From Dictyostelium discoideum (taxonomy: Eukaryota): a stretch of DNA of 64,000 bases. A program made the translations under genes and the position numbers. The notes beneath the pieces were generated by a model. It worked only from the letters and a program-made list of their open reading frames with translations. It had not been told where the DNA came from and searched no databases. The DNA is taken from the NCBI GenBank assembly GCA_000004695.1, contig CM000152.2:4896001-4960000 (forward strand). Reading direction: 5' to 3'. Below, piece after piece: positions 47,706 to 49,686 of the stretch (the first letter of the stretch is position 1; every line of letters starts with the position of its first letter).

Positions 47706-48176
47706 ATGAAATTATTAGTACTACGTTTAATTTTAATTATTTCAACAATTTTTGTTTTGTTAAATTTAAGTTGTATGGTGAATGGATTATCATTAAAAAG
47801 AAAATCAATTGTGTCAGATCATTGGGTAAATGTTGCAAATTCAATCGATGGTAAAACATTAACTTATAATACAATTGCAAATAAGGTGGATTTCCTTCAA
47901 TTTAGAGTTGACAGAGAAGATGAAAGTAGAATTTTAAATGATATGTATATAAATGTTACTTCAGTTAAAGCTGCAAGATTTGGTATATTCTTCAATAATT
48001 TCAATCCTGCAAATTCATCAAACGATAGTAGAGGTAGAGCTGGCTATTGTCCAATTTGGTTTGCTACTTGTGGTGCTGAAACTCCATACTTTTCATTAGG
48101 TTCAAATAATTCATATACTAGTGACTTAACATTTACTGTAACTGTCAGGGATGAAATTAAATTATGTGATTTCTAA
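47706..48176 (+). CDS. Secreted protein of an unrecognised family, paralog 1 (156 aa; signal peptide MKLLVLRLILIISTIFVLLNLSC; conserved CPxWFxxCG and VTVRD motifs)
   Basis: An intact ATG ORF with an N-terminal hydrophobic signal. It shares about 30-35% identity with paralog 2 along its full length. A poly-A tract lies immediately upstream of the ATG. Confidence 0.7.
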   Translation: MKLLVLRLILIISTIFVLLNLSCMVNGLSLKRKSIVSDHWVNVANSIDGKTLTYNTIANKVDFLQFRVDREDESRILNDMYINVTSVKAARFGIFFNNFNPANSSNDSRGRAGYCPIWFATCGAETPYFSLGSNNSYTSDLTFTVTVRDEIKLCDF

Positions 48177-48195
48177 ACAATTTTTATTTTGTTTT

Positions 48196-48249
<54 letters not shown>

Positions 48250-48350
48250 AAAAAACAAAAAAAAACAAAAAAAAAAAAAAAAAATACAAATTCATATTTA
48301 TATTTATATTTATATTATATTTATATATTTAATTACATTCACCACAAATA

Positions 48351-48386
<36 letters not shown>

Positions 48387-48990
48387 ATAATGAATTTTTT
48401 TTTATTTTATTTATTTTTTGTTATTTTATGAAGTTTATTTAAAAAGATTTAAGTTTTCCGATTCTGAAATTATTTTCTAATTAAGTTCCAAATTTTATTT
48501 TAAAAAAATAAATAGAGACATTGTTTATAATTATTTTTTGACGGTGTTTTTTATTTTAGTAAAGTTTGACCACCTTTTTCGTTTAATTCGATGAAAATGC
48601 AAATTATGCCAAAAAGTCTCCCTTAAAATAATAATTTTAAAATTTTTAATTTTTTTATTGTAACAAACTTTTAAATAAAAATTTTTAAAATATTTTACCC
48701 ACAAAATATTTATGGAAAGATAAATTTTTAAAATAATAAAAAAAAAAAAAAAAGTAAAAAAGTATTGGATAAAATATATATATATAACCCACAAAATTCG
48801 ATTTCCAAAAAAAAAAAAAAATTACCAAAATAATATAAAAAATATATAAAAATAAATATTTTCACAAAACCCGGTTATTTTGATGGGTTCCATTAATATT
48901 ATAATAATCTCAACAGGTTTCTTAATTTTTCTATTTTATTTTATTATAATTAATTTCTATTTAATTTTATTTTATTATAATTTTAATTTA

Positions 48991-49029
<39 letters not shown>

Positions 49030-49065
49030 TTTTTAAATAATTAAAAAAATTAAAACTATAAAAAA

Positions 49066-49096
<31 letters not shown>

Positions 49097-49191
49097 AAAT
49101 AATAAACAAAAATATTTAAGAAGAAGAATATTTTTTTAAATAAAAAAAAAAATAAAATAAAGAAAATAAAAAAAAAAAAATAAAAAGAAAA

Positions 49192-49686
49192 TTGAAAATT
49201 TTAATTCTATTAACAATTTTAATTATTTCAAGTTTTTTAATTTCAAATTGTTGTATTGATGCATTAATATTAAGTAAAAGAATTGGAAACATAGGCTATG
49301 ATTGGAATATCGTTGCAAAATCAAATGATGCTGAAAGAATAGTTTATAATTTCACACTTTCTGGAACAAATTTATATCAATTTAAAATTGATAGAACTGA
49401 TGGAGATACAATTTTCAATGATTTATATTTAAATATTACAACTACAAATCCAAGACAATATACTTACATAAACAAATACTTTTCAACAAATGAAATTGCA
49501 GATGTCCATTCTGATCCAAATGGTAAGCCATCATTTTGTCCAGCATGGTTTGGAGGTTGTGGTTCTGAACAATCTTTCTTTTCAATTTCATTAAATAATA
49601 CTATAACTTTCAAAGGTATAAGAAATAGTCCATCTGTACCAATGACAATTTATGTTACTGTTCGTGATGTTGCAACTCTTTGTTAA
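49192..49686 (+). CDS. Secreted protein, paralog 2 (164 aa). It has TTG at the position homologous to paralog 1's ATG, and no in-frame ATG before residue ~100.
   Basis: '(L)KILILLTILIISSFLISNCCIDA...FCPAWFGGCGSEQSFFSISLNN...IYVTVRDVATLC' aligns with paralog 1 'MKLLVLRLILIISTIFVLL...YCPIWFATCGAETPYFSLGSNN...FTVTVRDEIKLC'. The track's M at 49192 is a TTG. The frame is closed by TAA at 49141. Confidence 0.5.
   Translation: MKILILLTILIISSFLISNCCIDALILSKRIGNIGYDWNIVAKSNDAERIVYNFTLSGTNLYQFKIDRTDGDTIFNDLYLNITTTNPRQYTYINKYFSTNEIADVHSDPNGKPSFCPAWFGGCGSEQSFFSISLNNTITFKGIRNSPSVPMTIYVTVRDVATLC

Follow-up and report, generated by a model that had tools for sequence, protein, structure and literature searches.

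The question raised by this locus is how a gene whose start codon appears to be TTG comes to be initiated. The DNA analyzed is a window of 64,000 nucleotides (nt), extremely AT-rich in composition, from the social amoeba Dictyostelium discoideum (GCA_000004695.1, contig CM000152.2, positions 4,896,001 to 4,960,000), in which two open reading frames (ORFs) lie 1015 nt apart on the forward strand. ORF 1 (47706–48176, +; 156 codons and amino acids, aa) starts with ATG, and ORF 2 (49192–49686, +; 164 codons) has TTG at the aligned start position. An initial inspection made without database searches (the sequence-only reading) had taken the two for tandem paralogs and had offered three accounts of the second, namely a young pseudogene, a non-AUG start or a spliced alternative N-terminus. 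The tandem pair and the uncharacterized, lineage-restricted family to which it belongs are real, and the unusual-looking TTG start most likely reflects a fault in the reference sequence, an explanation that had not been considered; recent pseudogenization is retained here as a minority rival, and the other two accounts found no support.

The similarity of the two ORFs, which align end to end (32% identity over 145 aa, E 3e-25, BLASTP), is far above chance, and judged from this alignment they are true tandem paralogs, on the same strand and about 1.0 kb apart as originally described. The product of paralog 1 is residue-for-residue that of D. discoideum AX4 gene DDB_G0281771 (EAL66647.1, XP_640630.1, Q54TG1), and this exact match identifies the window as the AX4 reference, chromosome 3. 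Paralog 2 represents a second member of the family; when the first codon is translated as Met, its protein and KAM9950324.1 (ACTFIT_011574), annotated in another D. discoideum assembly (GCA_054883475.1), are 100% identical, and the 90% cluster containing KAM9950324.1 has members from 2025 assemblies only. No AX4 protein of the paralog 2 type was returned in any protein search. Paralog 2 is thus without a protein model in AX4, because an extra T removes its ATG.

Orthologous loci were taken from nine other assemblies, namely the ACTFIT assembly (L001; L011 in extended form), two diverged D. discoideum strains (L002, extended as L012, and L008), two ‘D. cf. discoideum’ (L009 and L010), D. citrinum (L005), D. 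dimigraforme (L004), D. firmibasis (L003) and D. purpureum (L006 and L007, scaffolds GL871087.1 and GL871171.1). In all nine, paralog 2 begins AAA-ATG-A, where the window reads aaaATTGa. Relative to gaaaATGaaaa in L001, the window sequence gaaaaTTGaaaa has one additional T within the ATG; the extra-T form reads AAAATTGAAA and the form with a normal ATG AAAATGAAA. Since orthologous alleles read ATG where the window has ATTG, the lesion is a T insertion and not an A-to-T substitution; the sequence-only reading had correctly found TTG at the aligned start position, but the ATG-to-TTG change that it described is a 1-nt insertion (ATG to ATTG). The ATTG occupies 49191–49194 (+); its surplus T, at 49192/49193, abolishes the AUG, so that what stands in frame is a TTG with the surroundings AAAA-TTG-A. 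From 49193 to 49686 (494 nt) the ORF is intact and shows no nucleotide difference from L001. The earliest in-frame ATG within it lies at 49642 (codon 151), 150 codons downstream rather than beyond the about 100 codons first estimated, and enumeration of the 300 nt upstream of 49192 confirmed that they hold a single ATG, at 48883.

The extra T is not an isolated difference. When window positions 39156–59721 were compared with L011, using the diverged strain L012 as outgroup (20.5 kb, 20,494 aligned columns), 19 substitutions and three short indels were detected outside long homopolymers. The derived state was in the window for all 15 polarizable substitutions and for all three non-homopolymer indels (18/18), and in L011 for none. 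The substituted window base copied an adjacent base in 16 of 19 cases (expected 8.4, P = 0.0003), and 12 of 21 spacings between differences were shorter than 150 nt (P < 1e-4), indicating clustering. These window-private differences gather in AT-rich non-coding stretches, with none within 7 kb of the tor coding sequence (CDS) nor in 51728–57042. Long A/T-rich runs contributed 17 length differences besides, the window having the longer allele in 17/17. Only two discrepancies in the 20.5 kb are coding. One is the T inserted into the start codon of paralog 2, and the other is a window-private T at 47822 (+), which gives CAT (His39) in paralog 1, the base being A (CAA, Gln) in the AX2-like assembly L011 and in four further strains of the discoideum complex; from this comparison, His39 of the annotated AX4 DDB_G0281771 protein may be an erroneous residue.

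Elsewhere in the compared segment, a compensating +C/−A pair, 14 nt apart at 57549 and 57563, distinguishes the window from both other strains. It lies in the first intron of an LSM-domain gene, the first exon of which appears to be just ATG, and it resembles a local miscall within a single read.

The significance of this one-sidedness depends on how closely the compared strains are related. L001/L011 is the sole near-identical assembly, at 99.2–99.6% identity (99.2% over 6.5 kb) vs about 90% for L002. Assemblies whose locus tags begin with ACTF correspond to the strain set of project PRJNA1300491, which provides Nanopore and Illumina assemblies of AX2-214, two diverged D. discoideum isolates and two cryptic sister isolates, and also covers three D. 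citrinum, D. dimigraforme and D. intermedium; AX4 and AX2 were 99.5% identical at another chromosome 3 locus (PMC12745789). The same axeB deletion-insertion is present in Ax2 and AX4, which implies descent from one axenic ancestor (PMC4374526), and the D. discoideum base-substitution rate is only ∼2.5–2.9e-11 per site per generation (PMC3466296, PMC7466956). Given the common ancestor and this very low mutation rate, one-sided differences at ∼9e-4 per site cannot be real divergence. When AX4 lines were compared with the reference, 1916 of 1917 candidate differences were common to the lines, so that the candidates reflect reference errors or ancestor differences (PMC3466296); differences of this kind between the reference and resequenced members of the AX4 lineage, shared by all AX4 derivatives, have accordingly been filtered out (PMC3466296, PMC4374526). 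The paralog 2 extra T resembles these known discrepancies in being one-sided, clustered and neighbor-copying, and is unlike those cited in that it destroys a start codon and drops a conserved gene from the annotation.

It is therefore probable that the discrepancies, ATTG included, are base-call errors of the 2005 Sanger AX4 reference; that they are errors and not AX4 mutations is something we infer from their pattern. The simplest reading is that they concentrate where Sanger reads cross long A/T homopolymers, a run of 26 T lying 95 nt upstream of the start codon. Paralog 2 would then be a genuine, conserved, ATG-initiated gene whose TTG arises from one T miscalled inside the ATG, just downstream of long A/T homopolymers, as one member of a clustered, one-sided set of at least 18 discrepancies in 20 kb. 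Several considerations count against this explanation. Both coding discrepancies sit in these two small genes. A miscall of TT for T is not the classic type of Sanger error, and finished reference sequence normally has fewer errors than about one per kb. Moreover, the verdict was reached from a comparison of assemblies, and the identity of GCA_054883475.1 (L001/L011) with AX2-214 was deduced by elimination.

The most substantial rival is that the T insertion is real and arose recently in the AX3/AX4 laboratory lineage, leaving paralog 2 a newborn pseudogene or strong hypomorph, with any residual protein made only by weak near-cognate UUG initiation in the good AAAA context, and with AX2 wild type. 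The extra T is, after all, present in the window sequence, and an ORF that, the insertion aside, is intact and does not differ from the ATG allele is what would be expected of a lesion only decades old; if the lesion is that young, the lack of any sign of decay over the 494 nt that follow is uninformative on pseudogene status. Paralog 2 is also the less constrained copy (ratio of non-synonymous to synonymous substitution rates, dN/dS, 0.36–0.65), and every ATG before codon 151 is out of frame, so that no truncated product could rescue its loss. However, the insertion is one of 18 differences that all fall on the window branch, are clustered and mostly copy a neighboring base, and ∼9e-4 per site is unattainable in about 50 years at 2.5–2.9e-11 (PMC3466296, PMC7466956, PMC4374526). 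A real start loss is accordingly considered unlikely. Nitrosoguanidine mutagenesis in the history of AX3 was considered as a source of clustered mutations and rejected. The bias of this mutagen is G:C-to-A:T, unlike the spectrum of the 15 polarized substitutions, which are mostly A/T transversions with a single G-to-A. Were the extra T real, the widely used AX4 strain would be a private null or strong hypomorph for a conserved, group-4-specific secreted glycoprotein that is made by AX2, amounting to a hidden genotype difference between two standard laboratory strains.

The two remaining accounts accept the TTG as functional or bypass it, and both conflict with the orthologous alleles. Evolved UUG initiation, in which paralog 2 would normally be translated from the TTG, draws on the fact that this codon is in frame, has A at −3 and occupies precisely the site homologous to the ATG with which paralog 1 starts. 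Nevertheless, TTG is found in none of the nine orthologous loci, including that of the 99%-identical strain, so that conservation of the non-AUG codon, the defining sign of this class, is absent; the ATG present in all nine excludes an evolved non-AUG start, and the idea is highly improbable. The literature searches found no papers specific to non-AUG initiation in Dictyostelium. Still less credible is a spliced 5′ exon that would begin at the ATG at 48883 and supply both an initiator Met and an alternative N-terminus. That ATG is indeed the only one within 300 nt upstream, and a GT at 48917 with an AG at 49161–49162 would delimit an in-frame intron of 246 nt, this AG being, by exhaustive enumeration from donor 48917, the sole in-frame acceptor that preserves the N-terminus. 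The junction is out of frame in the ATG alleles, and since it is in frame only through the extra T it cannot be a conserved feature. The intron of 269 nt originally suggested has no terminal AG, and the AG at 49186–49187 yields one of 271 nt that breaks the frame. As a donor, GTTTCT compares poorly with the usual Dictyostelium GTAAGT. The putative exon is not conserved as coding sequence, with a stop closing it after eight codons in D. dimigraforme and a 21-nt deletion in L010, and its product would place a Lys-rich stretch ahead of the signal peptide. In addition, the ATG at 48883 falls within a conserved non-coding motif, upstream of the putative core promoter.

The sequence TATAAAAAAA (49057–49066, +), read directly and conserved in L001 and L002, is followed by the 26-T run (49071–49096), and a TATA sequence with oligo-dT is the typical arrangement of a Dictyostelium core promoter. 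From their position, TATAAAAAAA and T26 likely constitute a putative core promoter with transcription starting some 90 nt before the start codon, near 49100, and the 5′ leader that this implies contains no ATG. Further upstream, the conserved non-coding element CACAAAACCCGGTTATTTTGATGGGTTCC (48863–48891, +) includes the ATG at 48883. It contains G and C residues in the arrangement AAACCC ... GATGGGTTC, forming a partial inverted repeat, and in several species lies 160–340 nt before paralog 2; the core, GATGGGTTC, has been preserved ahead of that gene in L001, L002, L008, L009, L010, L004 and L003 (at about 2836 in L003, 2783 in L004, 2660 in L002, 1143 in L008, 1272 in L009 and 1276 in L010). 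The 10-mer TGATGGGTTC, which holds the core, occurs once in the 64-kb window, with no repeats elsewhere in it beyond chance. On the strength of this conservation, the GATGGGTTC-containing element is a putative cis-regulatory site.

Gene order around the pair is stable outside D. purpureum, being tor (−), paralog 1 (+), paralog 2 (+), a three-longin-domain gene (−) and a DnaJ gene (+), with the tandem pair kept between tor and the longin gene in the D. discoideum strains, D. citrinum, D. dimigraforme and D. firmibasis. The two paralog types occupy separate scaffolds in D. purpureum, where the paralog 1 type adjoins tor and the paralog 2 type adjoins the longin gene. As D. purpureum has both types beside their own neighbors, the duplication is older than the discoideum–purpureum split, and the separation of the pair points to a rearrangement whose breakpoint lies between the two. 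The synteny comparison proposed in the sequence-only reading has thus found the pair in tandem in D. firmibasis and both types, divided between scaffolds, in D. purpureum. The relatives are annotated as ‘hypothetical protein’ (RB653_006073/006074 in D. firmibasis, DICPUDRAFT_155157/48126 in D. purpureum, and ACTFIT_011573/011574); ACTFIT_011573/011574 and their counterparts share the tandem arrangement and flanking genes, and AX4 paralog 2 differs in having neither an ATG nor a protein model. Pairwise dN/dS among species was 0.10–0.30 for paralog 1 and 0.36–0.65 for paralog 2, by which measure both paralogs are maintained, paralog 2 under looser constraint.

Neither protein gave more than noise against Pfam at E ≤ 10, and a sequence profile search of the PDB returned nothing below E 0.67. 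Two profile searches, one an exhaustive HMMER scan of 1.84 billion cluster representatives and the other word-indexed over 5.8 billion proteins, each recovered only two orthologue groups, from group-4 Dictyostelium species and with all family members matched at E 1e-36 to 1e-76, plus one spurious repeat protein. The latter (P0019, E 1.9e-9), a 1913-aa fish-type immunoglobulin-repeat membrane protein, was rejected as a repeat-inflated chance match, in which a short SSDGDQLIYSWTLNGESL-like segment, present eight times, aligns with profile positions 30–63. As far as these searches reach, the family is restricted to group-4 Dictyostelium, belongs to no recognized family and is uncharacterized, which bears out the earlier suspicion that it might be dictyostelid-specific; no papers mentioning its gene or protein identifiers were found in the literature searched.

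Both window ORFs carry all of the residues that are invariant across both paralog types and D. purpureum, which in paralog 1 numbering are W40, D72, N78-D79-x-Y81-x-N83-x-T85, P116-x-W118, C122-G123, N134-N135 and L153-C154. This set holds two N-x-S/T sequons (N83-x-T85 and N134-N-S/T) and exactly two cysteines (C122 and C154). The N-glycosylation-like sites of the sequence-only reading are therefore borne out, as are the P-x-W-[FY]-x-x-C-G and C-terminal L-C parts of its cysteine motifs; the first Cys of its CPxWF motif is not invariant. That residue, Cys115 of C-P-x-W-F, is conserved in every discoideum, citrinum, dimigraforme and firmibasis member of either type and is replaced by Ala or Thr in both D. 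purpureum members. With Cys115 as a third cysteine, the mature protein of one clade has an odd number of cysteines. The shared signal peptide proposed at the outset is a candidate only: alignment with orthologues shows a hydrophobic N-terminus, and the proteins are of secreted type by sequence features. By inspection, the N-terminus of paralog 1 consists of MK followed by LLVLRLILIISTIFVLL ... V-N-G|L, with cleavage predicted after V-N-G and residues 1–27 signal-peptide-like, and that of paralog 2 of MK followed by ILILLTILIISSFLI ... I-D-A|L. No transmembrane segment, glycosylphosphatidylinositol (GPI) signal or endoplasmic reticulum (ER)-retention signal follows the domain.

AlphaFold2 (AF2) models of the two paralogs (predicted local distance difference test, pLDDT, 75.5 and 74.0; predicted template modeling score, pTM, 0.68 and 0.71, respectively) consist of an N-terminal helix and then strands only (about 10 in paralog 1), and the proteins terminate 2–6 residues past the last β-strand. 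The mature domain of about 130 aa is predicted to be a jelly-roll or GOLD-like β-sandwich. It is proposed that each paralog, of about 155–165 aa, comprises a putative cleavable signal peptide and this sandwich, that it would enter the ER, become N-glycosylated at the two invariant sequons and presumably disulfide-bonded between C122 and C154, and be secreted as a soluble extracellular module of the binding type. Secretion, glycosylation, a single C122–C154 disulfide and extracellular ligand binding are all predictions. Two points detract from this picture, namely that secretion by way of a cleavable signal peptide was judged by eye from the N-termini, and that the Foldseek matches in the PDB are at fold level only (3–12% identity, E > 3e-3, template modeling (TM) score about 0.4), with model confidence moderate. 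Among these matches is the GOLD domain of p24/TMED proteins (PDB 7rrm, 5gu5 and 5azw; 3–9% identity to the family). The family proteins do not match the Pfam family of p24/TMED, EMP24_GP25L (PF01105), even at E ≤ 10, and lack the coiled coil, transmembrane helix and cytosolic COPI/COPII-binding tail of p24/TMED; because they end at the last strand, the p24-defining transmembrane and tail features are absent. The extracellular jelly-roll of SID1/SIDT1/SIDT2 (PDB 8j6o, 8k10 and 8v38) is part of large multi-pass membrane proteins and, at 6–12% identity, has no sequence-level relationship to the family. Weak matches (E 3e-3 or worse, TM score about 0.4–0.5) were also obtained to the C-terminal claudin-binding domain of Clostridium perfringens enterotoxin, the collagen-binding domains of collagenase, and CBM29, and in these models the likeness to small bacterial binding β-sandwiches appears to be one of resemblance only.

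The practical value of these results is modest and lies mainly in an annotation gap. A conserved gene is apparently absent from the AX4 reference proteome through one base, and the expression, proteomic and knock-out resources built on the AX4 annotation are blind to paralog 2. More generally, near long A/T runs the AX4 reference contains clustered single-base discrepancies at about one per kb, and caution is advisable before odd starts or frameshifts there are given a biological reading. A lineage-specific family of what would be secreted β-sandwich proteins is itself of modest interest, and nothing points to an unusual mechanism.

No tRNA genes were found near the two genes (paralog 1 CDS, 47706–48176, +; paralog 2 ORF, 49192–49686, +). 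Directly after the paralog 1 stop is an A-rich tract of about 95 nt (48190–48285), which is 21 nt shorter in the AX2-like assembly, and the intergenic region includes an (ATT)n microsatellite at 48991–49033. A poly(A) signal, AATAAA, can be read at 49741–49746 (+), 55 nt past the paralog 2 stop codon, and the three-longin-domain gene, of the Fuz/Mon1/Hps1 type (49906–51427, −), is the downstream neighbor of paralog 2 in every species, D. purpureum included.

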